NCBI GenBank assembly: GCA_016235345.1
Contig: JACRLG010000028.1
Coordinates: 1 to 64,000 of the forward strand
Reading direction: 5' to 3'
DNA from: Deltaproteobacteria bacterium
GTDB lineage: Bacteria; Desulfobacterota; Desulfobacteria; Desulfobacterales; Desulfatibacillaceae
DNA length: 64,000 nt
Positions 205-16,560 of this stretch are shown here, one piece after another (within the stretch, counting starts at the first letter, position 1; each line of letters begins with the position of its first letter). Under the pieces are notes generated by a model that was not told the origin of the DNA, ran no database searches, and was given only the letters and a program-made list of their open reading frames with translations. Both the position numbers and the translations under genes were made by a program.

Positions 205-1248
205 TCAGAAAATAATACTTTTAATCTTGTACGATTTTTTGCATTTTCCATCAATCTTGAGCCCTACCGGTGTGTCTATCCCGGCTGGAGCATTTGTGAC
301 TGTTTCACTATTGACTTGTACTTGCATTACTTTAACCGAATACCAATTGTTACTTGAATTTTTGATTAATAGTAGCGATCCAGGTATCAACTCAACACCA
401 CGAGAATAAATACAAACTATGTTATGATTATAAACAGCAATTGGTAATCCATGATCAGTGCCATATTTTGCAATATAATTTATGAAAGTTTGGTTGATCA
501 CCGTTGTAAGGCCTTTACAATACGCGCTTAGCATATCACAATATGGGATAATTTCACTATGAGCAAGCACATTTGATGTATCGCCATGTGCAACCTCATT
601 TCTCCGCACTACAAGATCATTAATCAAGTCAAGAACAGTTTCTGGTCGTTCGTTCGACGCAATACGATCATATGATTTGAGAAAAGCATCAAACTCATCA
701 GTTTTAACACATCTGCGACTTGCTGACTCTATACCTATACGCCCAAAAAACTCATCAACCATTGGAACCCTAAAATTTGAGGTATGGTACCTCATAGATT
801 CAACTATAAACCTATAAGGAATTTTTCCAGAGAGACATCCTGAAAAAGCATCAACAATTTGAATCGCATCATAGCGCCCATCATAGCGACTACCACGTGT
901 GCGCTGAAGGTGGCTTACAGTTAGATCAAAATGAGCTTCCCTGAGCTTATCGGGTAGGGCATCATATGTAGGTGCCACTTTTACTACATTAGTAATGAAC
1001 TCTTCAGCGATTTCCTCAATGAAGCGCTCCAATACCCCATAGAGAAGGACTATTGAGCAGGCATAGTCGTAAGTCCTACCCGGAGAAAAATTTGAAATTT
1101 TGTTTGCCCATTCGAATGCAGGACCGGCAACATTTAAATCAAGAGTCAATAAATGCTTGACCGCCGTAATCTTATTCTCGGATAATTCTGAAAAACATCG
1201 CAAATCATCCAAGCGAGCCAATGCAGTGGAGAGCGCTGCATAATTCAC
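205..1248 (-). CDS. Abi_2/HEPN-like protein with an Rx4H motif, predicted RNase effector; hypothetical.
   Basis: 347 aa ORF in the low-GC module. Motif DLVVRRNEVAHGD matches the HEPN R-x4-H / Abi_2 RN..AH signature. There is a 4-bp ATGA overlap with the upstream DUF262 gene, consistent with an operon. Confidence 0.5.
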   Translation of the reverse strand: MNYAALSTALARLDDLRCFSELSENKITAVKHLLTLDLNVAGPAFEWANKISNFSPGRTYDYACSIVLLYGVLERFIEEIAEEFITNVVKVAPTYDALPDKLREAHFDLTVSHLQRTRGSRYDGRYDAIQIVDAFSGCLSGKIPYRFIVESMRYHTSNFRVPMVDEFFGRIGIESASRRCVKTDEFDAFLKSYDRIASNERPETVLDLINDLVVRRNEVAHGDTSNVLAHSEIIPYCDMLSAYCKGLTTVINQTFINYIAKYGTDHGLPIAVYNHNIVCIYSRGVELIPGSLLLIKNSSNNWYSVKVMQVQVNSETVTNAPAGIDTPVGLKIDGKCKKSYKIKSIIF

Positions 1249-2489
1249 GATAAAATGCTCTCAAAGAGTTTAAAAAAAAGATCATTACGAACTCTTAGGT
1301 TCTCACGATTTGTATAACGTCCTTGGAATTGACTATTCTCAGTTTCATAAAGGTCCCTAATTGCTCTGACTATTTCATCTTTCTTGGCGATTAAGTTCTC
1401 GCTTCGATCAAGAAATTGACTGAGAGCGAACATCAATGGATCGTAAACGACAGTTGTAGGGCGTCTATACCACAGCCATCCTGTTGTTCGCTTACGCCAA
1501 AGAAAAAATGCTTCTTCACCCAAAAGTTGACATGCTAAGTCAATCGTATTTCTAAAGAGACCTTCCAACGCGCTAAGAACTTCTTCGGTGAAGAGATTTG
1601 CTCGTTGTAAATAAATATCCATAAAAATTTTTAATGGCCCATCCTGATTCAATAGTCGTTGACGGTACGCGAAAAATCGAAGAACCAACTCGACATCATC
1701 CATTCGACGAAAAATATCATTTTCACGGGTAATCTCATTAATTTCTCCACCCGCCAACTCAGTCTCATCAGGTTCGGGAATTCCCCACGTTCGACAAAGC
1801 GCAGGGGTTCGACTCAACTTTATGCACAACCGGTTCATCTTGCCATCGAATATTGCATTACGGCTTTCCTGGTCGGACAGGCTTACACCACCACTATTGA
1901 TCCGCTCGAATACTAACTGCTTTAGGCGTTGAGCTTCAGTTGGATCACTAGCGGTTTCGCGCATCAGAACCACTGAAGATAAATATCTGCGATCCACACC
2001 ACGCCGAACAGCTTCTGGTAAAGTCTCATATGTTCGGCCATTTAATTCCGGCCATTCTTCTAAACCCGCCAATATCAATTTGCTCTGATAGAAATCGCTA
2101 ATAGTAGTTAATCGCTGCAATCCGTCCATTACTTCATATTTAGCATAGCCTACTTCATACAAAAATACTGGGGGTATCGGTACGTTAATGATGAATGATT
2201 CAATCAAGCGAGATTTTTTTATGTTGTCCCACCGATGTCTTCTTTGGAAATCCGGGTCGAGCCGATAGTCTGAACTCGCAACCATTTGCGGAATTTGAGG
2301 CAATGGATACCTCGCTTGTTCTGTAACTATTCGGACAGCGCCAGCGTTGTATCTTTCGTTCAAAGCATCGTCACTTGCTTGAGTTGGGTTCGGACCTTTC
2401 TCCACAGTAAAATCGATCTTTTCATTTTCAAAAAGAAAATCTGATTGCATATTCTGAACCATCCCGTGGGAAGAGTTAAAACTTTTCAA
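1245..2489 (-). CDS. DUF262-domain protein (ParB-like nuclease superfamily; GmrSD, SspE or BREX-associated type).
   Basis: 414 aa. Motifs DPDFQRRHRW, LIESFIINVPIPPVFL, MDGLQRLTT (a DGQQR variant) and ERINSGGVSLSDQESRNA are characteristic of DUF262. The gene is low-GC. Confidence 0.7.
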   Translation of the reverse strand: MKSFNSSHGMVQNMQSDFLFENEKIDFTVEKGPNPTQASDDALNERYNAGAVRIVTEQARYPLPQIPQMVASSDYRLDPDFQRRHRWDNIKKSRLIESFIINVPIPPVFLYEVGYAKYEVMDGLQRLTTISDFYQSKLILAGLEEWPELNGRTYETLPEAVRRGVDRRYLSSVVLMRETASDPTEAQRLKQLVFERINSGGVSLSDQESRNAIFDGKMNRLCIKLSRTPALCRTWGIPEPDETELAGGEINEITRENDIFRRMDDVELVLRFFAYRQRLLNQDGPLKIFMDIYLQRANLFTEEVLSALEGLFRNTIDLACQLLGEEAFFLWRKRTTGWLWYRRPTTVVYDPLMFALSQFLDRSENLIAKKDEIVRAIRDLYETENSQFQGRYTNRENLRVRNDLFFKLFESILS

Positions 2490-2699
2490 TATTTCTTTTG
2501 AGCATACTCTCCTTAAAACATAAGAAAATTATGCGGGCTGGGAGAGGAAGGCTCAGAAATCCGTATAGTAGAATATACCAAAAATTGTCAAAATTCAACA
2601 TACATTGAAGAACTTGATCGCTCGGGACGTAAGCACCATCTGAATTACCGGCTTCCCGACCTGCCCAATGAGCCCGAAGTATGCGGCCGGGCAAACGGT

Positions 2700-4787
2700 T
2701 TGATAGCGCGCGCCCTGGCTGCTCTTGCCTCAAGGTTCAACAGCACGGATGTCAAGGTGGACGTGACCGTTGGAAACGCTGCCCGAATATGGAAGCTATA
2801 CGGCACGATGGCGTGCAAGGGTGATGACACCCCCGGCAGGCCACACCGCATAAGCTCCCTGTTTAAAGGTGCCCCCCTGGTACTTGGGGATGTCCCCGTA
2901 TCAGACAGAGATGCGTTGGAGCGACTTGCCGCCACGGCTCCGACTGCTGCAGGAAAGGGTCGGCAACGTCAGCCATCGTCACCCGGAAAAAACAAGTCTC
3001 TTCCTCAAGACGGAAATCTTGGGCCGATAAATATTCCCGCTTATTTGAATCATTACGGTGTCACTTTTAGAGGCACCAAGCAGGAAGGGGCCGCGACGTA
3101 TTATCTGCTGGAAAACTGCGTATTCGATCCTGAGCATACGGACGGCAAGGCCGCCATAATCGGATCTCCTGAGCCCCCCTATCTTTCTTACGCCTGCTTT
3201 CATCAAAGCTGTTCAGGCAAAACCTGGAAGGAAGCCAGAACGGCCATATCCGGCGATGACCCGTTGGCGCGTTTTTGTGACGGATACGACCCTGACTGGC
3301 AACCGGAACGCAAAAAACGAATGTTGCGCGACCGCTCCGGCAATGAGCCTGCGGCGATTTGTGAATCGGCGGGAAATGTTGACAAAAGCAACCTATTTGA
3401 CGTTGATTTTGAGGCCCTGCCTTCAATTCCGACACCCAAAGAAGTTGACCCGCTATTATTTTTCGATCTTGGGCCTGAAGGGAAACGCAAAAGGGGCAGC
3501 TTTGTTGAAATGAAGATGGCGCAATACCTTTCCCTGTATTTTGCGCCCATCCTTAAAACCAACGGAAAATTCTATCAATTTAAAGATGGGGTTTGGAAAA
3601 TCCTTTCCGAGACCGTGATAGAAAAAGCAGTGGCGCATTCGCTGAAAAACCTCTGCAAGGCTCCACATCTGGACAGTTCTATAAGAGTGTTCGGAGCACA
3701 GGTAGGCCAGGAAGAGGAGGAGTGGCCCGATTATCCCAACCTGATCAACTGCAAAAACGGCATGGTGAATATGGAGGCCGACTATTTGGAGTTCAAAGGC
3801 AAGAGCAGAGACGTTTTGCTCCCTCACGATCCCAAGTACGGCAGCCGGGTGCAACTGCCTGTCGAATACGATCCTGAGGCAACGTGCCCCAGGTGGGAAC
3901 AATTTTTACAGGAAATTTTTCCGACAAGCCCGGAAAGGGCGGCTTTGCTGCAGCTATTTTCGGGTTACGTGCTCTTGCCGCATACAAAATTTGAAAAGGC
4001 CCTGTTCCTTTTCGGGACCGGAGCCAATGGCAAGAGCACGGTCATCTCCGTGCTGGAAAAGATACTTGGGCCTGAAAACGTTTGTACTGTCTCATTGAGC
4101 GAGCTCAGCAGACCATTTTCGGTTCTGTCCTTGCAGAATAAGCTGCTTTCTGTGGCCTCTGAAATGGAAACCAAAGAGGCGCAAAGCACGGAGGTTTTAA
4201 AGAAGGTCATATCCGGCGACTCCATATCGGGGGAGGAAAAATTCGGAAAGCGGATCGAATTCAAAAGCTGCGTCAAATTCATGTTCGCCATGAACAACCC
4301 ACCCGCCGTCTCGGATAAGACTGAAGGCTTCAAACGAAAAATTCTGGTGTTATATTTCGACCAGAGGATTCCTGACTCAAAAATGGACAGGGGCCTGGTT
4401 GAGCACCTTGTACGTGAAGAATCCGCCGGGATATTCGCCTGGATGGTCATGGGGGCTGCAATTTTAAACAAGAAGGGCGGCTTCCTGAACCTTGGAAAGA
4501 TTGTTGAAAACGACACGAACAGCTTTATGCATACCTTGAATCCGCTTTTGGACTTTCTGGATGAGAAAACCCACCTGGACCCGGAAGCAAGCGTGCCGAG
4601 TGATGATTTTTATCGGGCGTACAAGGCTTGGAGCGAAGACAGCGGCTTGAGGCCTTTGGGCAAAGTTCAGCTAAATTTGCAGCTTCTAAGCGCCATGCCC
4701 AAGGTGAGCAAGAAAAAGATAACGGTCCCATTCGGTGGAACCGAGAGCCGCCGCCACTGCTATACGGGCATAAGACTTCTGTCATAG
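2700..4787 (+). CDS. Phage/plasmid primase, P4-family C-terminal domain, D5-like NTPase/helicase; probably 5'-truncated.
   Basis: Walker A motif LFLFGTGANGKST and a D5_N-like region. The ORF only opens with TTG at 2700, right at the GC discontinuity. A Prim-Pol C-terminal-like remnant (RIWKLYGT..KG) and a Zn finger (CFHQSC) are present, but no catalytic primase N-terminus. Confidence 0.75.
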   Translation: MIARALAALASRFNSTDVKVDVTVGNAARIWKLYGTMACKGDDTPGRPHRISSLFKGAPLVLGDVPVSDRDALERLAATAPTAAGKGRQRQPSSPGKNKSLPQDGNLGPINIPAYLNHYGVTFRGTKQEGAATYYLLENCVFDPEHTDGKAAIIGSPEPPYLSYACFHQSCSGKTWKEARTAISGDDPLARFCDGYDPDWQPERKKRMLRDRSGNEPAAICESAGNVDKSNLFDVDFEALPSIPTPKEVDPLLFFDLGPEGKRKRGSFVEMKMAQYLSLYFAPILKTNGKFYQFKDGVWKILSETVIEKAVAHSLKNLCKAPHLDSSIRVFGAQVGQEEEEWPDYPNLINCKNGMVNMEADYLEFKGKSRDVLLPHDPKYGSRVQLPVEYDPEATCPRWEQFLQEIFPTSPERAALLQLFSGYVLLPHTKFEKALFLFGTGANGKSTVISVLEKILGPENVCTVSLSELSRPFSVLSLQNKLLSVASEMETKEAQSTEVLKKVISGDSISGEEKFGKRIEFKSCVKFMFAMNNPPAVSDKTEGFKRKILVLYFDQRIPDSKMDRGLVEHLVREESAGIFAWMVMGAAILNKKGGFLNLGKIVENDTNSFMHTLNPLLDFLDEKTHLDPEASVPSDDFYRAYKAWSEDSGLRPLGKVQLNLQLLSAMPKVSKKKITVPFGGTESRRHCYTGIRLLS

Positions 4788-4855: not shown

Positions 4856-5122
4856 GTGACGATATTTGAAAAAGCCTTAGTACCGGTCTGGAGTACCGTT
4901 GCCGCCGCAGCGCCGTTGTTCGGCATGGGCGAAAGGCGCGTGATAGAGCTTATCCGCTCCGGCATGGTAAAGGGTTATCAGGCGAACCAGCAGGACGACG
5001 CCCGGCGCTCGTGGTGGGTGGACACCAGGAGCCTTGACCGGTATCACGGAGACAGGGCGGCACAATACCAGGGCGAAGCGGATCTTGTGGCGCAGGACGC
5101 CCTTCGCAGGATGCGCAAATGA
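4856..5122 (+). CDS. Excisionase/AlpA-family HTH DNA-binding protein.
   Basis: 88 aa. The GERRVIELIRSGMVKGYQ ... WWVD pattern resembles excisionase/AlpA HTH_17 proteins. It lies immediately upstream of int and overlaps it. Confidence 0.5.
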   Translation: MTIFEKALVPVWSTVAAAAPLFGMGERRVIELIRSGMVKGYQANQQDDARRSWWVDTRSLDRYHGDRAAQYQGEADLVAQDALRRMRK

Positions 5123-6129
5123 ATCCTTCTTGCCCAACAGATAGTCTTCGTGCTACCTTTCCCTCCATGAGACTTTTTGAACGAAACGGCATATGGTACG
5201 TCCAGGTTCGCAGAGGCCAGAAAATCAGCCTCAAAACCTCGGACCGCAAGGTGGCAGAGTCCGCCTTCCGCAAGATGCAAAAAGAGGCTCTTGAGGGTCG
5301 TTTGTTCCAGTTGGACAAATCCGCCCGCATCCCCCTCCGGCAATGGGGAGAGGAATATCTCAAAAGCCGGGGGCACTTGGCTGACGGCACCCTCAAAAAA
5401 GACCGTATGGTCCTGGGGCTTTTGGGCGATGTGATCGGCCACGACATCGCAATTAAAGCTGTGACTAAAGCGAAACTGGACGAGTTCGTCCGCGCATGTC
5501 TCGCCCGTGGCGTATCCAAGCCAGGACTCAACTCCTATCTCCGCCACATCAGGGCCTGCCTCAATGCCGCCGAGGAGGCAGGGTACCTGGAAAAGCCCGT
5601 CAAGACCAAGATGGTCAGGGAGCCTTCCAGGTATCCAGGCATCCTGTCCCCGGAGCAAATCGCACAGGTAATCGCCTATGCCGAAATCCATGACCCGGAG
5701 ATGGCCCGCATAATCCGTTTCGCCGTGTGGACCGGCTGTCGTCGCGTGGAAATCATCGGGCTGCGGTGGGAGCACGTTAAAGGAGACCTTGTCCATATTA
5801 TAGGCAAAGGCGACAAGGAGCGGCACGTACCTCTGCTGTCAGGGGCGCTGGAAGCGATGGGAGATGTCAAGCATATCGGCCCGGTCTTCTGGCAGGTTCA
5901 CCCGGATGTTGTCACCCATCATTTTAAAGACATTGCCCGCGCCTGTGGCATGGAAAACGTCCATTTCCACAATTTAAGGCACAGCTCAGCCACACAGATG
6001 CTTTCTTCCGGGATTCCGCTCCACATGGTCCAGGAAGTTTTGGGCCATTCCAGCATCGCAACGACACAAATTTACGCCAAGGTTTTAAAGGAGACTTTGA
6101 CCAAGGAGATGCAGAAACTCAAGTGGTGA
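5119..6129 (+). CDS. int: Tyrosine recombinase / phage integrase family.
   Basis: Catalytic C-terminal motifs HNLRHSSATQML..GIPLHMVQEVLGHSSIATTQIYAKV and an N-terminal SAM-like domain. Confidence 0.9.
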   Translation: MNPSCPTDSLRATFPSMRLFERNGIWYVQVRRGQKISLKTSDRKVAESAFRKMQKEALEGRLFQLDKSARIPLRQWGEEYLKSRGHLADGTLKKDRMVLGLLGDVIGHDIAIKAVTKAKLDEFVRACLARGVSKPGLNSYLRHIRACLNAAEEAGYLEKPVKTKMVREPSRYPGILSPEQIAQVIAYAEIHDPEMARIIRFAVWTGCRRVEIIGLRWEHVKGDLVHIIGKGDKERHVPLLSGALEAMGDVKHIGPVFWQVHPDVVTHHFKDIARACGMENVHFHNLRHSSATQMLSSGIPLHMVQEVLGHSSIATTQIYAKVLKETLTKEMQKLKW

Positions 6130-6195: not shown

Positions 6196-6245
6196 ATCCC
6201 TCGATTCTTGCAATCGTGCCGGTTCGATTCCGGCTCCGGGCACCA
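6196..6245 (+). other. tRNA 3'-end fragment (T-arm, acceptor 3' strand and CCA), a putative att core repeat of the integrated element.
   Basis: GCCGGTTCGATTCCGGC (T-arm), then TCCGGGC, A, CCA ending at 6245. No complementary 5' acceptor strand or D-arm lies upstream, so it is not a complete tRNA. Confidence 0.5.
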
Positions 6246-10592: not shown

Positions 10593-10838
10593 CTATTGGT
10601 TGCCGTAGCCGTTAAGTTGTGAGCATTCCGGGCACTGCCACTGGATGCCGTTGCAGCTTAGGGTCCAGAAATTCTCGTCCATGCAGGGCTGGCACATGGC
10701 GAACCCGCACCGGCAGGTCCAGCAGAAAAGGTATTCCTTTTTGCACAACTGGCAGACCCGGTTCCTGGCCCGCCTGCCGGGCCGCCCCTTTTCCGCCCTG
10801 ACCGGCGAAACCTCGTCTTTTGGCCTGTTTTCGTCCAT
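10593..10838 (-). CDS. Small Cys-rich zinc-ribbon protein.
   Basis: Four CxxC-type pairs (CQLC, CWTCRC, CQPC, CPEC). GGAGG lies 9 nt upstream of the internal ATG at 10838. The longer TTG-start ORF to 10940 is less likely. Confidence 0.45.
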   Translation of the reverse strand: MDENRPKDEVSPVRAEKGRPGRRARNRVCQLCKKEYLFCWTCRCGFAMCQPCMDENFWTLSCNGIQWQCPECSQLNGYGNQ

Positions 10839-10974
10839 TCCGTCATCCTCCAAGCGCCCTGCCCTCCTGTTTGAGCCCTTCCGCATCGCGTTCTTGAGAT
10901 TGCAGACAATAGATGATAGGAATTTTGGAATCAACCGCAAGTATTACGCACCCCAAAATAGCGAGCCCCAATTC

Positions 10975-13624
10975 ATGCCCCAGTCATTTTACATCATAGA
11001 CGGATCCGCCTTCATCCACCGGGCCTATCACGCGGTGCGCGGGCTTTCCACATCGAAGGGCTTTCCCACAAACGCGATTTTCGCCTATACCCGGATGCTC
11101 CTGGCGCTCATGCGCGACAAGCGCCCGGATTACGCCGTGGTGGTTTTCGACGCCAAAGGCCCCACGTTCCGGCACGAAATGTACGAGGCATACAAGGCCA
11201 ACCGGCCGCCCATGGACCCGGAACTTGCCATGCAGGTCCCCTACGTGCGCACCATCACCGGGGCGCTTTCCATTCCATACATCGAACTCATAGGCTTCGA
11301 GGCCGACGATATCGCCGGAACCCTTGGGAAACAGGCCCTTGGCCACGGCCTTGACGTGGTTTACGTAACCGGCGACAAGGATTTTCTTCAGCTTGCCGCC
11401 CCCGGCGTTTCGATAATGGACCCCATGAAGGAGACCTTCAAGGATTACGGGACGATCAAATCCGAGCTTGGCTTCGAGCCCGCGCGTTTCCGGGACGTGC
11501 TGGCCCTTTGGGGGGACAGTTCCGACAACATTCCGGGCGTTCCGGGAATCGGCGAAAAAACCGCGATGGCGCTTATAAAGGAATTCGGAAGCCTTGAAGG
11601 TGTTTACGAAAACCTCGACAAGATCACCAAAAAGAAGCAGAAGGAAAACCTTGAATCAAGCCGGGAAAACGCGTTTTTGAGCCTTAAACTCGCAACCATC
11701 GATACCAATGTTCCGGTGGAGTTTTCGCGGCAATCCCACAAGCCGGGGGAGCCTGACCGGGAAAAACTCGCGCCGGTTTTCGAGGAGCTGGAGTTTTCAA
11801 AGCTCGCTGCGGAATTTGCGGTGATGGCGGAAACGCCGCCCGCCCCCGTCCTCCCCCCGCCGGAATACGTGAGCATCACCGACGAGGACGCCCTTACGGC
11901 CCTTGCCGCCGAGCTTTCCCGATGCGCCGAGTTTAGCCCTGGTGGGCATCAGCCTCGCCACCGGCCCGGGCCGGGGGTGGTACGTCCCGGTGGATCACAC
12001 GGCCCTTGCCGCCCCCAGGCAGGCGGGCCTTGAAAGCGCTCGCCGGATTCTCGGCCCGGTATTTGCCGACCCGCGCATCAAAAAGGTGGGCCAGAACATC
12101 AAGTACGATCTCATCGTGCTGGTTCGACACGGTTTTAAAGTGGAAAACATAGCCTTCGACACCATGATCGCCTCCTACCTCTTAAATCCCTCCTCCCGCG
12201 CCCACGGCCTGGACAGGCTTGCCTCCGACCTTCTGGGCCACAGGATGATCCCTTACGAGGAGGTGGCCGGAAAGGGCAAGGGGGAGGTAGGCTTCGACCA
12301 CGTGCCCGTAAAGGAGGCCACCGCATATTCGGGCGAGGACGCGGACATCACATTGCAGATCAAGGAAAAGCTCGCGCCCATGCTGGAGGCCGAGGGCCTT
12401 TCAAGCCTTTTCGCGGAAGTGGAAATGCCCCTGGTGAGGGTTCTGGCGGATATCGAGATGAAGGGGATAAGGGTTGACACCGATCATCTGAAAACCCTGT
12501 CCCGCGAGTTCGAGGCGGAGATGAAAACCGTGGAAGCCGCGATTTTCGGGCTTGCCGGAGGCCCCTTCAACATCGCCTCGCCCCAGCAGCTCGGCCACGT
12601 GCTCTTTGAAAAGCTGGGCCTGCCCACCCAGAAAAAGACCAAGAAGAAAACCGGCTACTCCACCGACGCGGCGGTTCTGGAGCAGCTTGCGCCCAGCCAC
12701 GAGCTTCCGGCCCAGGTGCTGCGCTACCGGACTCTCGCCAAGCTCAAATCCACCTACGCCGACGCCCTTCTTTCCCTGGTGAACCCGCATACGGGCCGGG
12801 TCCACACTTCCTTCAACCAGAACGTGGCCGCCACGGGCCGCCTTTCAAGCTCGGACCCCAACCTCCAGAACATCCCCATCCGCACAAAGGAAGGCCGACG
12901 CATCCGCGAAGCCTTCATACCGGAAAAGGGAATGGTGATGTTTTCGGCTGACTACTCCCAGATCGAGCTACGAGTCCTGGCCCACTGCTCGAACGACCCG
13001 GTTCTGATCGACTCCTTCAAAAAAAACGAGGACGTGCACACCCGCACGGCAAGCGAAATTTTCGACCTCGACCCGGCCTTTGTGACGGGTGAGATGCGCC
13101 GGCAGGCGAAAAGCATCAACTTCGGCCTCATCTACGGCATGGGGGCGTTCAAGCTCTCAAACGAGCTTGGAATCAGCCAGTCGCTTGCCAAGCGCTACAT
13201 CGAGCGCTACTTTTTAACGTACCAGGGCGTGAAACGCTTCATGGACCTTTCCATCGAAACCGCGCGGGCCACCGGGAAAACCACCACCCTCATAGGCCGC
13301 ATCCGGCGTCTGCCCGCCATAAACGGCAAGGACCGGGTGGAGCGCGAGGCGGCGGAGCGCATAGCCATCAACACCCCCATCCAGGGAACGGCGGCGGACA
13401 TCATAAAAATCGCAATGATCCGGGTTCAGAACGCCCTTATCGAACGGAAGATGAAAACCGCCATGCTGCTTACGGTTCACGACGAGCTTGTTTTCGAGGC
13501 CCCGCCGGATGAACTTTTAGAGGCGAAAAGCCTTGTGCGGGATTTGATGGAAGGGGCGATGGAGCTTCTGGTGCCGCTAACCGTCAACATGGCCGAGGGC
13601 GAAAACTGGGCAGAGGCGCATTGA
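10975..13624 (+). CDS. polA: DNA polymerase I, interrupted by an apparent frameshift near 11905-11935 (5'-3' exo in frame 1; 3'-5' exo-like and polymerase domains in frame 2).
   Basis: N-terminus MPQSFYIIDGSAFIHRAYHA at ATG 10975. The downstream frame carries KVGQNIKYD, RVHTSFNQNVAATGRLSSSDPNLQNIP, QIELRVLAH and VHDELVFE, collinear with E. coli PolI. The two frames overlap at 11903-12033. Confidence 0.85.
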
Positions 13625-13639: not shown

Positions 13640-16560
13640 CGACTCTTGAGTTTTTCTATCTAATCTGCAGCTTCTGAATATATATTATAATCTAACGCAT
13701 CGTCAATTCGAGAATTTAAGATATCAAGCTCATCTTTGGCTTTATTTCGATCATGAATTCCAACATCTGTATCATGTATAATTTGATGTAATATCCTACA
13801 TCTCAATTTTTGATGTACCATTATATCTTTACCTTCAATTATACGCCAGTATCTTGAAGCTTCTTTCCAGTTTTCTTTAGAAACATATAATTTACATTTT
13901 AATCCGTTGACAACATCCTTTTTATCAGGCCTCGGACCAAATTTTTTTTCAATTTTTTCAATCAGATTTTGTGCCTCATCATATTTAGAAAGTTCTATAT
14001 ATATGTCAGCTAGATTTGACAAATTCTCAAATCTAGGAGTATATTGCATTGATGTTTTCTCAGCGAAACTTAACGCTTCCTCATAAAAGCCTTTTGAAGA
14101 ATAAAATATCGACATTCTATGATTATAACTACTATCGTCGCCAGCGCGTTTTAATAAATCTAATTTTTCAATTGCTTTATCATATTGCCCGAGCTTAATA
14201 TATATTAGAGCTGATAAATCGAGAAGTAATGGGTTTTCAGCCTTTTGGCCTTTAATGCTTTCAATCGTATTTTTTGCATCTTTAATGCGTCCTGATGCTA
14301 TAAGTGTATGAATTAAACCATGATAAGTAGCAACAGATCTATTTCCTGCATCTATTGCATGCTTAAAATATTTCGACGCTGCTTCGAATTCGTATCTCTT
14401 CCAATGAAAAAAACCTTTTAAATAAAGACAGTCATCAAATTTTTTATCACAAATAATTTGTAAAAGTTTTTTTGCATTATCCCATTCAGCCAGTCTAATA
14501 TAGGTTTTACATAATAATGATGCTGCCTTTCGATTGTATTCTTGTATTTTTAATACATTTTCTAATAAATTTTTAGCAATTATCCATTCTTTTTGTCCAC
14601 CGATATTGTAATAATCCCTTGCATTTCTCAGCAACATTGATGGAATAACAAAAGATTTGAAATCATCATTAATTCCTTTTTCTGATCTTATACTTGCTTG
14701 TATCGTACAATCAATTACATCCATTCTTGGCGATGTATTGATTATATCCCATATGTTTGTTTTCAAATTTGATAATATTTCATTATATTTTTCAGGGCTA
14801 ATTCTACCTAACACTCTATTAACAGTAGATTTTATTGGTGATGCAATTATAAATGTTTCTTCTAATGCATAAATTAAGCAAAAATTAATAAGCTTTTTAA
14901 TAATTTCGGTTAATCTTTCGGTTTTAAAGCGTGATATTATCTGCAGTGTTTGATAGCTTATAGCTGAATTTTCGGCGATATATTTTAATATAAATTTTTC
15001 ATCTTCATGTAGAATTAATTTTTCAATTATTGGCGCATAAGCTTTGATTTGCAGATTAGATAAAAATTGTTTATCATTAAATAAAACCTCGACAGTGTAT
15101 TGTTTTGCATAAGCTACTGATAGTGATACAGCAGGTGGAAATCCAGCCATGTAATATGATAGTTCTTGAATTTGTTCTTCATCTAGAGCGATATTCGCAT
15201 CTTTAAACAATAAAAAAATTAAGGTTTTGGTATTTTCTAAATCAATAGGCGGAACTTTTAAATATATGGGGTCTAAAAAACTCCAATCTTTATCTTCAAT
15301 AGTTGGTCTGAATTGATGAATTACAGCAAAATATTTTTCTTTATATTTTGATAAACTTTTAAAAAGTTGTATAGCTTCATTAGTATATCTAGATAGCGAA
15401 TCTGTTAATGCTCCATTGTCAATAATTGTAGGCAATTCATTTTTTCCAGATGTCGATGTAAGCAATAAAGCAATTTCATTTATTTGATCTTTTAAATTAA
15501 GTTTTCGAAATCTATTCATTTCACTATTAATTTGATCTTTTGAGTATAATTCACCTGATTCATCGATTAATGCCATATATAAACTGTCCATCCCATCATC
15601 TGGGTCTAACACTATCTGTGGACCAAGATTTTGCGAAATAATGTCTTTGGCTACTTTTGTCAAAAATGTTCTTCTGCCTACATTGGGTAAGCCACCAAGT
15701 ATAATTAAATTTTCATATTCATGGCCAATTCTTTTTCGCAAACTTGCCGAAAATGAATCTTGTAAATTTGATCTACCAAGACATTTAAATGTTTTTCCCA
15801 TATCCAGTAATCTATTTAAACTTGATTCAATTATTCTTGATGCTCTACCAGGGTTCGTAACTTTTTCAATTATTATATGTTTCATCCATTCTGGAATATT
15901 ATCAATTTCTGTATCATCAATTATTATTACAATTGCTTTCTTAATAATATTTAATGAATACAACTCTTGAGCATAGTTTATTTCAAAGTTTACCCAAGAT
16001 GATTGCAATGAATTTTTACTAGCTAATAAAACGAAAATGCTGGTCTCTTTAAGTTTTGAACGAATTTCATCAATCAATAATTGACCAGTTTCAAAACAAT
16101 ATTCATCGAGAATAATATTGCGACGCTTTAATCTGTTAGCCAAGGTTTCAACAAATGCCTTTTCTTTTTTTGAATGACACAAAAAAGCTCTCATGATTTA
16201 GCTCCTTATAGGCTTTTTTTGTCTATTTCAGCTTATCAATTGCCGTTTTGGCCATAGACATATCCCACAATGAGATAAGGAGGTCAACTTGTCGGCAAGG
16301 TCCTCGAATTCGATAAGTTAAACTTCAAATTAGACTCTCAAGCTTCCTTCCTTTCCGGTTATGATTATGGAACGATTTCGTACAGATGTTTCTATCCTAT
16401 TTTGTTCCAACTCGCTTTTCCAATAACTATTTTATACTAAGGATTTTTTTGAATATCAAGTCCCAACTGTATCCTGAAAAATTTTCTGTGTGGGGGAACC
16501 ACCTTAAAAATCCTCTTGCAATTATTTTGAAGCTCGTTTACTCTTTGAACCGGATTCAAT
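13640..16560. mobile_element. AT-rich (about 30% GC) single-gene defence islet.
   Basis: Sharp compositional discontinuity against the roughly 60% GC flanks. It contains only the TIR-STAND-TPR gene plus about 350 bp of AT-rich upstream sequence. Confidence 0.5.
13660..16194 (-). CDS. TIR domain - STAND (NB-ARC/NACHT-like) NTPase - TPR repeat protein (bacterial NLR-like antiphage class).
   Basis: N-terminus AFLCHSKKEKAFVETL...IFVLLASKNSLQSSWVNFEINYA matches bacterial TIR. A P-loop-like ILGGLPNVGRRTFLTKVA follows, then a C-terminal series of TPR-like helical repeats. Confidence 0.85.
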   Translation of the reverse strand: MRAFLCHSKKEKAFVETLANRLKRRNIILDEYCFETGQLLIDEIRSKLKETSIFVLLASKNSLQSSWVNFEINYAQELYSLNIIKKAIVIIIDDTEIDNIPEWMKHIIIEKVTNPGRASRIIESSLNRLLDMGKTFKCLGRSNLQDSFSASLRKRIGHEYENLIILGGLPNVGRRTFLTKVAKDIISQNLGPQIVLDPDDGMDSLYMALIDESGELYSKDQINSEMNRFRKLNLKDQINEIALLLTSTSGKNELPTIIDNGALTDSLSRYTNEAIQLFKSLSKYKEKYFAVIHQFRPTIEDKDWSFLDPIYLKVPPIDLENTKTLIFLLFKDANIALDEEQIQELSYYMAGFPPAVSLSVAYAKQYTVEVLFNDKQFLSNLQIKAYAPIIEKLILHEDEKFILKYIAENSAISYQTLQIISRFKTERLTEIIKKLINFCLIYALEETFIIASPIKSTVNRVLGRISPEKYNEILSNLKTNIWDIINTSPRMDVIDCTIQASIRSEKGINDDFKSFVIPSMLLRNARDYYNIGGQKEWIIAKNLLENVLKIQEYNRKAASLLCKTYIRLAEWDNAKKLLQIICDKKFDDCLYLKGFFHWKRYEFEAASKYFKHAIDAGNRSVATYHGLIHTLIASGRIKDAKNTIESIKGQKAENPLLLDLSALIYIKLGQYDKAIEKLDLLKRAGDDSSYNHRMSIFYSSKGFYEEALSFAEKTSMQYTPRFENLSNLADIYIELSKYDEAQNLIEKIEKKFGPRPDKKDVVNGLKCKLYVSKENWKEASRYWRIIEGKDIMVHQKLRCRILHQIIHDTDVGIHDRNKAKDELDILNSRIDDALDYNIYSEAAD

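Follow-up and report, generated by a model that had tools for sequence, protein, structure and literature searches.

The closest described relative of the gene pair examined here is PD-T4-2, a "DUF262, HEPN" system of E. coli ECOR65 that guards E. coli against T4 in the strain it comes from and also after cloning (Vassallo 2022). Its A component carries PF03235 and its B component PF18735/PF18737; in PADLOC the two are represented by PDLC04027 and PDLC04028, and the sequences are RCO39066.1 and an unannotated ORF on QOYX01000002, both ORFs spanning ~1,540 bp. No mechanism of PD-T4-2 has been published in the searchable literature. An operon of ParB with a RiboL-PSP/MAE_28990 HEPN gene was tabulated as early as 2013 (Anantharaman et al. 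2013, Table 1), and the same survey lists operons of ParB, a methylase, and MAE_28990; for RiboL-PSP/MAE_28990 it holds a table entry only, with no barrel, experiment, or mechanism described. Two further systems with related components are Menshen, which consists of NsnABC (Millman 2022, Li et al. 2025), and PD-lambda-5, listed as "ParB/HEPN, methyltransferase" (Vassallo 2022).

In this study, we examined a pair of genes in a stretch of 64,000 nucleotides from a Deltaproteobacteria bacterium (contig JACRLG010000028.1), the whole of which is here called the window. The two genes lie on the minus strand in the same orientation, with a gene for a DUF262 protein (gene A) upstream of a gene for a HEPN protein (gene B) and an overlap of 4 bp (Table 1). 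Both ORFs given in the initial annotation were recovered at 1245..2489 (414 aa, TTG start) and 205..1248 (347 aa, GTG start), and all motifs quoted from them are present (DPDFQRRHRW, MDGLQRLTT, ERINSGGVSLSDQESRNA, and DLVVRRNEVAHGD). Its reading of the pair as a co-transcribed two-gene module of defense type is supported. The statement that the pair corresponds to no named system needs partial correction, since PD-T4-2 also combines DUF262 with HEPN, the operon has its entry in the 2013 survey, and protein A matches PD-T4-2_A. The pair is a PD-T4-2-class module in a distinct, so far unnamed long form and not a new kind of system.

Table 1. Features of the A-B locus and its surroundings (positions in the window; A2, alignment of 40 A sequences)
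Feature	Position	Strand	Evidence or remark
Gene B, HEPN RNase-like putative effector, 347 aa, GTG start	205..1248	-	Pfam; stop codon at 205-207
C-terminal beta-barrel of B, residues 263-347, ~85 aa	208..462	-	Resembles domain II of translation factors
Helical HEPN domain of B, residues 1-262	463..1248	-	Includes N-terminal helical extension of ~55 aa
HEPN catalytic motif R-N-x3-H (RNEVAH), B residues 216-221	586..603	-	Homologue alignments
Second conserved B motif HxxNFR (HTSNFR), residues 155-160	769..786	-	Homologue alignments
GTGA overlap, B GTG start over A TGA stop	1245..1248	-	Sequence
Gene A, ParB-like DUF262 protein, NsnA type	1245..2450	-	401 aa; Pfam GmrSD_N 1e-24
DUF262 motif III FxxxN (FERIN), A residues 181-185	1896..1910	-	Translation; A2
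DUF262 motif II DGxQR (DGLQR), A residues 109-113, predicted NTP-binding center	2112..2126	-	Translation; A2
DUF262 motif I QRxxxW (QRRHRW), A residues 69-74	2229..2246	-	Translation; A2
Divergent intergenic region, A to primase gene	2451..2699	.	TTGACA-like box; short upstream ORF with strong Shine-Dalgarno
P4-family primase/helicase (D5_N, DUF5906, Pox_D5)	2700..4787	+	Pfam; NCBIfam TIGR01613 5e-51
Tyrosine integrase	5119..6129	+	Pfam Phage_integrase 4.9e-28
tRNA gene 3' half (T-arm, acceptor strand, CCA)	6196..6245	+	Sequence reading

Protein A consists of an N-terminal DUF262 domain and a helical, putatively ParBDB-like C-terminal domain whose model is confident. The ORF can be opened at the TTG at 2489 for a product of 414 aa; the true start is likely the ATG at 2450, since this yields 401 aa, the length shared by most homologues and by the gene as called in a separate, independent assembly that includes this locus. 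As annotated, the DUF262 domain is complete: the motifs QRxxxW, DGxQR, and FxxxN, defined in PMC12065111, are all present and invariant throughout the 40-sequence alignment. More than 5,285 homologues were found at E<=1e-10. The best PADLOC match of A is NsnA (1.1e-60, model positions 24-383 of 385), and PD-T4-2_A is matched over part of its length only (5.7e-33, model positions 45-287 of 363). Long-form A proteins constitute a clade of their own with 36-71% identity within it, compared to ~23-34% to Menshen-type or short-form A proteins (~27-30% for window A against short-form A). Pfam searches revealed no DUF1524/HNH nuclease domain in A and no DUF1524 match in B. Neither protein was matched in NCBIfam, and PDB sequence searches with A and with the B profile had no matches.

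Protein B is a HEPN protein of the RiboL-PSP family with a conserved catalytic motif and a HEPN fold. Its Pfam matches are HEPN_RiboL-PSP (PF18735, 3.5e-18) and then HEPN_MAE_28990 (PF18737, 5.6e-12). The protein had been annotated as an R-x4-H HEPN of Abi_2 type, of which the fold and the conserved motif stand; the family does not, as Abi_2 (PF07751) is absent from the Pfam matches at E<=0.1, and RiboL-PSP is described only as a distant relative of AbiF/AbiD (Anantharaman et al. 2013). The AlphaFold (AF2) model of B (pLDDT 87.7, pTM 0.83) matches solved HEPN domains, and B combines a helical HEPN fold with an Rx4-6H motif. Conservation of the RRNEVAH region was confirmed, with R216, N217, and H221 invariant both in 13 close homologues and in 132 cluster representatives of 19-49% identity. 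E74 and N158 are likewise invariant in the 132 representatives; N158 is so family-wide, and H155 nearly so. The C-terminal barrel is EF-Tu-domain-II-like. Homologues of B fall into 460 clusters (50% identity) with a cutoff of E<=1e-30 and into 1,791 when it is relaxed to E<=1e-3, and the mean identity among homologues is 30% for B versus 52% for A. In NCBI, long-form B proteins are annotated as "MAE_28990/MAE_18760 family HEPN-like nuclease."

The comparison with PD-T4-2 was made by way of the PADLOC profiles and a PD-T4-2-like pair from an E. coli plasmid, which stand in for the ECOR65 proteins themselves. In both cases two genes form an operon in which A precedes B, the A protein combines DUF262 with a DndB/ParB-like region and lacks DUF1524, and the best Pfam match of B is RiboL-PSP, followed by MAE_28990. 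The B proteins differ in extent: while PD-T4-2B is a HEPN domain only (~168 aa), window B has 347 aa and adds an N-terminal helical segment of ~55 aa, which short PD-T4-2B-like proteins lack, and the barrel of ~85 aa. It is this C-terminal barrel, overlooked in the initial annotation, that sets the window pair apart from PD-T4-2. The PD-T4-2_B profile (PDLC04028, 168 positions) has no match at E<=0.1 in window B or in the Tabrizicola and Shewanella long forms. It is nonetheless the PADLOC family most often matched by long-form B proteins, with 6 of the 132 representatives (best 5.4e-5) and no match in the remaining 126. Long- and short-form B proteins align weakly over the HEPN core and motif region; in hhalign, the long-form B profile and the 191-aa HEPN protein of the E. 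coli plasmid shared 26 residues around the motif at 11% probability. Since hhalign aligned the motif region only, the case for homology between the two forms draws on their common Pfam families and on weak HMM hits.

The overlap of the two genes, annotated as ATGA, exists but reads GTGA, and this arrangement suggests translational coupling. This -4 junction recurs in 9 related loci, and most others join the genes within ~+/-13 nt. In our synteny survey, every homologous locus retaining upstream DNA had A immediately before B in the same orientation, overlapping or abutting. This applies to 15 of 16 species-level genomes from five phyla (Pseudomonadota, Bacteroidota, Actinomycetota, Desulfobacterota, and Myxococcota) and likewise to metagenomic contigs, to plasmids, and to viral contigs of IMG/VR. 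One natural A-B fusion protein (P0101) was found, which could reflect a sequencing error removing a stop codon. In 4 of ~22 loci, the pair is joined by a gene for a DNA methyltransferase of ~700 aa. No such gene is present at the window locus, where a convergent ORF ends near 130 and the primase gene lies on the other side. The A-B promoter is presumably located in the divergent region that separates A from the primase gene; a scan for promoters and terminators gave background-level signals and no minus-strand promoter in that region.

The pair is AT-rich, probably horizontally acquired cargo with a P4-family primase and an integrase as neighbors. Its mobility is indicated by the low GC content, the flanking P4-family primase, integrase, and tRNA fragment, and homologues that lie by an integron integrase, on an 8-kb MOBQ plasmid, and by a P4-type integrase. 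The GC difference had been annotated as 38% versus 60%; it is real but smaller (40.7% for the pair versus 55.8% for the window). The annotated primase and integrase were both found as well, and an 88-aa ORF described as "AlpA-like" has no Pfam match even at E<=5. The tRNA fragment behind the integrase gene appears tRNA-Leu(UAA)-like when read by eye and probably represents an att remnant on the integrase flank. The element thus carries a P4-family primase and an integrase next to an att-like tRNA fragment. The fragment has a single copy within the window, and neither ARAGORN nor Rfam detected an intact tRNA or a member of another RNA family, be it in 1-9 kb or across the whole window. No useful direct repeats that would mark the ends of the element were found. 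In P4, the hotspot is bracketed by psu and int and adjacent to cos. The assignment of the pair to this position is not supported, as it is separated from int by the primase gene and the 88-aa ORF, and a psu-like gene was not seen in 1-6.1 kb, the portion of the element that the window contains; the element extends past the window's left edge.

We also compared the pair to other systems with related components. Menshen NsnA and window A share the architecture of ParB-DUF262 and a predicted ParBDB-like C terminus with an end-to-end profile match, and the same logic is proposed for both systems, in which DUF262 is the sensor and the effector is a nuclease that targets RNA. However, no counterpart of the ABC-ATPase transducer NsnB (DUF3696) is encoded beside window A, and whereas NsnC has an N-terminal inPIN, window B combines HEPN with a beta-barrel and has no PADLOC NsnC match. 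Also unlike in Menshen, the effector, a HEPN protein, is encoded directly downstream of the sensor gene. GmrSD, BrxU, and SspE share with window A the N-terminal DUF262 NTPase/sensor with its three motifs and a helical DNA-binding middle domain, but they have a DUF1524 HNH DNase fused on as the effector, while that of the window pair is a separate HEPN RNase-type protein. The operons of the 2013 survey show the same gene association as the long-form loci, including an occasional DNA methylase. PD-lambda-5 resembles the fused P0101 and the methyltransferase-carrying long-form loci in architecture only, and its PADLOC models matched neither window A, window B, nor P0101. In HEPN-MNT toxin-antitoxin systems the partner is a minimal nucleotidyltransferase, whereas here it is DUF262. 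The long-form pair is not covered in the BREX type 4 paper. DARNA, which is PD-T7-3, and the HEC candidates, which are GmrSD-like or other HEPNs, were considered as relatives and rejected.

Taken as a whole, the domain identities, the conserved catalytic motif, the fold of B, the constant order of A and B with coupled junctions, and the mobile-element context make it probable that the pair is a horizontally acquired antiphage or anti-mobile-element module, i.e., the long form of the PD-T4-2 class. Protein A would act as the sensor, a ParB/sulfiredoxin-fold DUF262 NTPase with a helical ParBDB-type DNA-binding domain as in Menshen NsnA. By analogy to GmrSD, SspE, and BrxU, it may recognize a feature of invading DNA and change its conformation upon NTP binding or hydrolysis. 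Protein B would be the effector, a RiboL-PSP-type HEPN ribonuclease, presumably dimeric, with R216, N217, and H221 in its active site. Licensed by A, possibly through physical interaction, B would cleave RNA, and the resulting stop of translation would lead to abortive infection. Judging from its likeness to translation factors, the barrel could have a role in RNA targeting and direct B to tRNA 3' ends or the ribosomal factor-binding site; alternatively, it could serve protein contacts. We put forward only tentatively the more specific idea that long-form B is an undescribed type of effector, in which the barrel would steer a HEPN RNase to the aminoacyl-tRNA 3' end or the translational-GTPase site and which would be switched on directly by a DNA-sensing ParB-like NTPase, with no ATPase transducer.

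The pair could also be a toxin-antitoxin or addiction module, in which B is the RNase toxin, A is the antitoxin, and the pair stabilizes its carrier plasmid or element instead of serving in defense. We consider this unlikely, as A is an enzyme-like protein of ~400 aa with invariant NTPase motifs and is much better conserved than B, which is unusual for an antitoxin, and as the validated relative PD-T4-2 is a phage defense in its native strain. A module can have a toxin-antitoxin role and an abortive-infection role at once, and this explanation therefore overlaps with that of an antiphage module. Another function to be weighed is modification-sensing restriction of type IV or RM-like kind, with A itself cutting or nicking foreign DNA and B as an accessory or back-up. 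DUF262 is the N-terminal domain of the type IV enzymes GmrSD, BrxU, and SspE, ParB-fold proteins have been called nucleases (Anantharaman et al. 2013), and PD-T4-2 was selected on T4, whose DNA carries glucosyl-hmC; the methyltransferase genes of some long-form loci and the methylase-containing operons of the 2013 survey also fit. Yet the pair lacks DUF1524/HNH, DUF262 serves as NTPase/sensor and not as the cutter in the characterized enzymes, and the window locus has no methyltransferase. Moreover, the catalytic residues are the most strictly conserved positions of B, which is thus not a passive accessory, and we regard restriction by A as improbable.

The strong NsnA match of A, its best in PADLOC, might instead point to a degenerate Menshen system in which NsnB and NsnC have been lost and the remaining NsnA is an orphan, with an unrelated HEPN gene adjacent to it by chance. 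The synteny survey effectively refutes this, since A and B adjoin with coupled junctions in every locus examined across five phyla. NsnA also outranks PD-T4-2_A for the short-form E. coli pair and is therefore simply the broader model, and long-form A proteins form a separate clade with low identity to the Menshen type. The chance of such an origin is accordingly close to nil.

While the long-form pair opens no new category of immunity, it represents a much larger, multi-phylum sister family of a validated E. coli defense system. PADLOC v2.0.0, the sole defense-annotation library run, misses the long form and recognizes its A component only; many "orphan NsnA/DUF262" hits would be reclassified if defense-finder tools included a long-form B profile. 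The combination of a conserved sensor and a fast-evolving effector offers a useful handle on arms-race dynamics. The presence of a translation-factor-like barrel on a HEPN effector also provides a concrete, testable idea on the RNA target. If long-form B is the type of effector tentatively put forward above, the pair would be a minimal two-protein link from phage-DNA sensing to translation shutdown that is widespread, with at least 460 sequence clusters.

Both open reading frames (ORFs) proposed in the initial annotation were confirmed on the minus strand, and every motif quoted there was found in them. The upstream gene, A, encodes a DUF262 protein and the downstream gene, B, a HEPN protein. 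The proposed 4-bp overlap exists, its sequence being GTGA rather than ATGA. The ATG at position 2450 is most likely the true start of A, because a second, independent assembly of this locus has a called protein of 401 amino acids, as do most homologues. Just 5' of A, a 9-codon ORF (MLKRNIEKF) with a strong AAGGAG Shine-Dalgarno sequence overlaps the alternative TTG start and could encode a leader peptide or be fortuitous. The GC content is 40.7% for the pair, 55.8% for the window, and 51 to 55% for the adjoining primase and integrase.

Coordinates of features in the window and in compared homologous loci
Feature	Locus	Position	Strand	Remark
A	window	1245-2489	-	ORF, 414 aa if TTG start
B	window	205-1248	-	ORF, 347 aa, GTG start
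MLKRNIEKF ORF	window	2476-2505	-	
P4-family primase	window	beside pair		divergent from A; TIGR01613, 5e-51
Tyrosine integrase	window	neighbor of pair		
tRNA 3' half	window	6196-6245	+	T-arm, acceptor strand, CCA; just downstream of integrase, single copy
DNA polymerase I-like gene	window	10645-13624	+	
5'-3' exonuclease part	window	10645-12033	+	
polymerase part	window	11903-13624	+	
844-aa ORF	window	13660-16194	-	
A upstream of B	five metagenomic or genomic neighborhoods		same	
A upstream of B	15 of 16 species-level genomes		same	16th: B at contig edge
A upstream of B	Tabrizicola and Shewanella plasmids		same	
A upstream of B	IMG/VR viral contigs		same	
DNA methyltransferase (~700 aa)	L019	1153-3345		the four mutually homologous
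DNA methyltransferase (~700 aa)	L023	5861-8128		
DNA methyltransferase (~700 aa)	L026	6592-8610		
DNA methyltransferase (~700 aa)	L030	1752-3878		
Pair at integron integrase gene	L031	3548-7331		Shewanella baltica OS195 plasmid pS19502
B in two ORFs	L032	4632-5663		Nostoc sp. C057 plasmid
DUF262 gene and ATPase gene	L035	3402-5562		Klebsiella pneumoniae plasmid pA

Protein A matched GmrSD_N/DUF262 in Pfam (1e-24), and the DUF262-defining motifs QRxxxW, DGxQR, and FxxxN are all present and invariant across a 40-sequence alignment; DUF1524 is absent from A. Protein B matched HEPN_RiboL-PSP (3.5e-18) and HEPN_MAE_28990 (5.6e-12), which upholds its earlier designation as HEPN but not as Abi_2, and PADLOC and NCBIfam searches with B gave no match. 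An AlphaFold2 model of B using 13 homologues as input was confident (pLDDT, 87.7; pTM, 0.83) and consisted of two parts. Residues 264 to 344 form a beta-barrel resembling translation-factor domain II and related barrels, with matches to Pbp11 (9.9), eRF3 (9.7), IF2 (9.4), the U32-peptidase C-terminal domain (9.3), EF-Tu (8.8), and the fMet-tRNA-binding domain of IF2 (7.5); Foldseek independently returned the same barrel matches.

Residues H155, N158, F159, R160, R216, N217, A220, H221, and G222 are invariant in 13 close homologues of B. The predicted conservation of R-x4-H was borne out across 132 family representatives, one per different 50%-identity cluster and 19 to 49% identical to window B, in which E74, N158, R216, N217, and H221 are invariant. 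Judged by alignment, R-x4-H is the most constrained feature of the B family, because R216, N217, and H221 do not vary in this set. Mean identity to the window protein over the same 16 loci is 52% for A and 30% for B, and by this measure the two differ in evolutionary rate.

The neighboring P4-family primase and integrase were confirmed, while the 88-aa ORF described as AlpA-like had no Pfam match even at an E value of ≤5. The tRNA fragment downstream of the integrase we take, reading by eye, to be tRNA-Leu(UAA)-like from the anticodon loop onward. No intact tRNA was found anywhere in the 64-kb window, so that the complete gene and the second att site are placed left of position 1; this fits an integrative element with its other end left of the window. 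The P4 hotspot is located between psu and int, adjoining cos, and the context does not place the pair there, contrary to the initial annotation.

Elsewhere in the window, a DNA polymerase I-like gene appears to be divided between two ORFs that overlap and differ in frame; a frameshift or misassembly could explain this, or the gene could truly be split. Directly after it, an 844-aa ORF fills an island of 27 to 31% GC. It carries a TIR_2 domain (7e-14, amino acids 4 to 94) and C-terminal TPR repeats, matches TIR-NLR in PADLOC (2.1e-22, residues 2 to 617), and appears to be another defense candidate, made up of a single gene and acquired independently.

This Deltaproteobacteria bacterium MAG is the only known source of the exact B sequence. 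A B profile search of 1.84 billion representatives yielded 1,791 matches at E values of ≤1e-3, 1,150 at ≤1e-10, and 460 at ≤1e-30; the best 150 were nearly all ~345 to 380 aa long, with the barrel included in the coverage. In the survey of homologues proposed earlier, every locus retaining upstream DNA has a ~400-aa A-like gene immediately 5' of B in the same orientation; these loci include species-level genomes of Pseudomonadota, Bacteroidota, Actinomycetota, Desulfobacterota, and Myxococcota. In nine loci the two genes overlap by 4 bp, and in most of the remaining loci their junction falls within about ±13 nt. Since the flanks vary by locus (chromosomal genes, a two-component system, a P4-type integrase, an integron integrase, or a MOBQ plasmid backbone), A and B move as a unit. 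One 765-aa homologue is an A-B fusion, which could stem from a sequencing error removing the stop codon.

The sole recurrent third gene encodes a DNA methyltransferase, found 5' of A or 3' of B in 4 of ~22 loci, which suggests that a subset of pairs works as a restriction-modification-like three-gene system. No DNA methyltransferase gene lies beside the window pair, which is flanked by the end of a convergent ORF near position 130 and by the divergent primase. An N-6 DNA methylase is also encoded upstream in a Bradyrhizobium locus of the short form (a PD-T4-2-like pair with a small HEPN protein). Among loci of the long form, in which A is paired with a longer, barrel-bearing B, the S. baltica pair immediately adjoins the integron integrase gene and may therefore be carried as an integron cassette. 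On the Nostoc plasmid, an intact A is followed by a B broken into two ORFs (134 and 204 aa); B is apparently a pseudogene there, the sensor gene having been kept.

The pair had initially been regarded as an unrecognized system, but the combination of DUF262 with a PF18735 HEPN protein is already named in PD-T4-2, described as "DUF262, HEPN" with two coding sequences that together cover ~1,540 bp in ECOR65 (Vassallo et al. 2022). A cloned copy of PD-T4-2 guards against T4, and its deletion from ECOR65 sensitizes the strain. By HHpred, PD-T4-2A matched PF03235 and is DndB-like, and PD-T4-2B matched PF18735 (97.8%) and then PF18737 (96.9%) (Vassallo et al. 2022); for window B, these two Pfam families come up in the same order; a review likewise assigns DUF262 and PF18735 as PD-T4-2 domains. 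Because of these shared families, the ParB plus RiboL-PSP/MAE_28990 HEPN operons tabulated by Anantharaman et al. (2013), and the NCBI label of long-form B proteins ("MAE_28990/MAE_18760 family HEPN-like nuclease"), this kind of system is already known and named.

Nevertheless, the window pair is not a straightforward PD-T4-2 member. The PD-T4-2_B profile (168 positions) did not match window B or the other long forms tested; it weakly matched 6 of the 132 family representatives, yet was their most frequent PADLOC family. In PADLOC, window A matched NsnA (1.1e-60, spanning 24 to 383 of 385 positions) and PD-T4-2_A (5.7e-33), a ranking that is uninformative since NsnA also outscores PD-T4-2_A for the PD-T4-2-like pair of a 3.9-kb E. 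coli plasmid (A, 373 aa; B, 191 aa), which both PD-T4-2 profiles match (4e-50 and 4e-4). Short B proteins (167 to 261 aa) are PF18735 members and align to the long-form profile across the HEPN core alone (positions ~65 to 255; 6 to 30 bits); the long form thus carries two additions, a helical segment at the N terminus and the barrel at the C terminus. Menshen has the same NsnA sensor architecture as window A but requires NsnB and NsnC, both missing at the window locus. Long-form A proteins are a cohesive group (36 to 71% identity), about equally distant (23 to 34%) from A proteins paired with short HEPN proteins and from an ATPase-paired Menshen-type A protein. On the K. pneumoniae plasmid, an A-like DUF262 gene is followed, in Menshen-type order, by an AAA-family ATPase gene in place of HEPN; therefore, related sensors pair with different downstream partners.

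A function of the pair as a defense-type module is well supported. Domains sharing the barrel fold of B bind the ends of aminoacyl-tRNA or attach translational GTPases to the ribosome, and for this reason we put forward tRNA or RNA associated with the ribosome as the proposed target. In the best-supported reading, A would detect invading DNA via its DUF262 and ParBDB domains with an NTP-dependent switch, by analogy to GmrSD, SspE, and BrxU, in which reviews assign DUF262 to DNA sensing with such a switch. Having sensed DNA, A would license B as a HEPN RNase, whose attack on RNA may lead to translation arrest or abortive infection. What the analysis demonstrates is the domain identities, the conservation of the active site, the strict synteny, and the mobile-element setting; DNA sensing, contact between A and B, the RNA target, and the outcome are inferred. 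A toxin-antitoxin or addiction module is a rival that overlaps with this three-step model, and another is that A acts on DNA itself in a type IV-like role. Adjacency of A and B by chance is ruled out by the synteny survey.

A literature search turned up no description of the long form or of HEPN fused to a barrel. We conclude that the window pair is a long-form variant of the PD-T4-2/ParB plus RiboL-PSP-HEPN class rather than an unknown system; its novelty is modest and lies in the barrel carried by the effector, how large the family is, and its non-detection by PADLOC.
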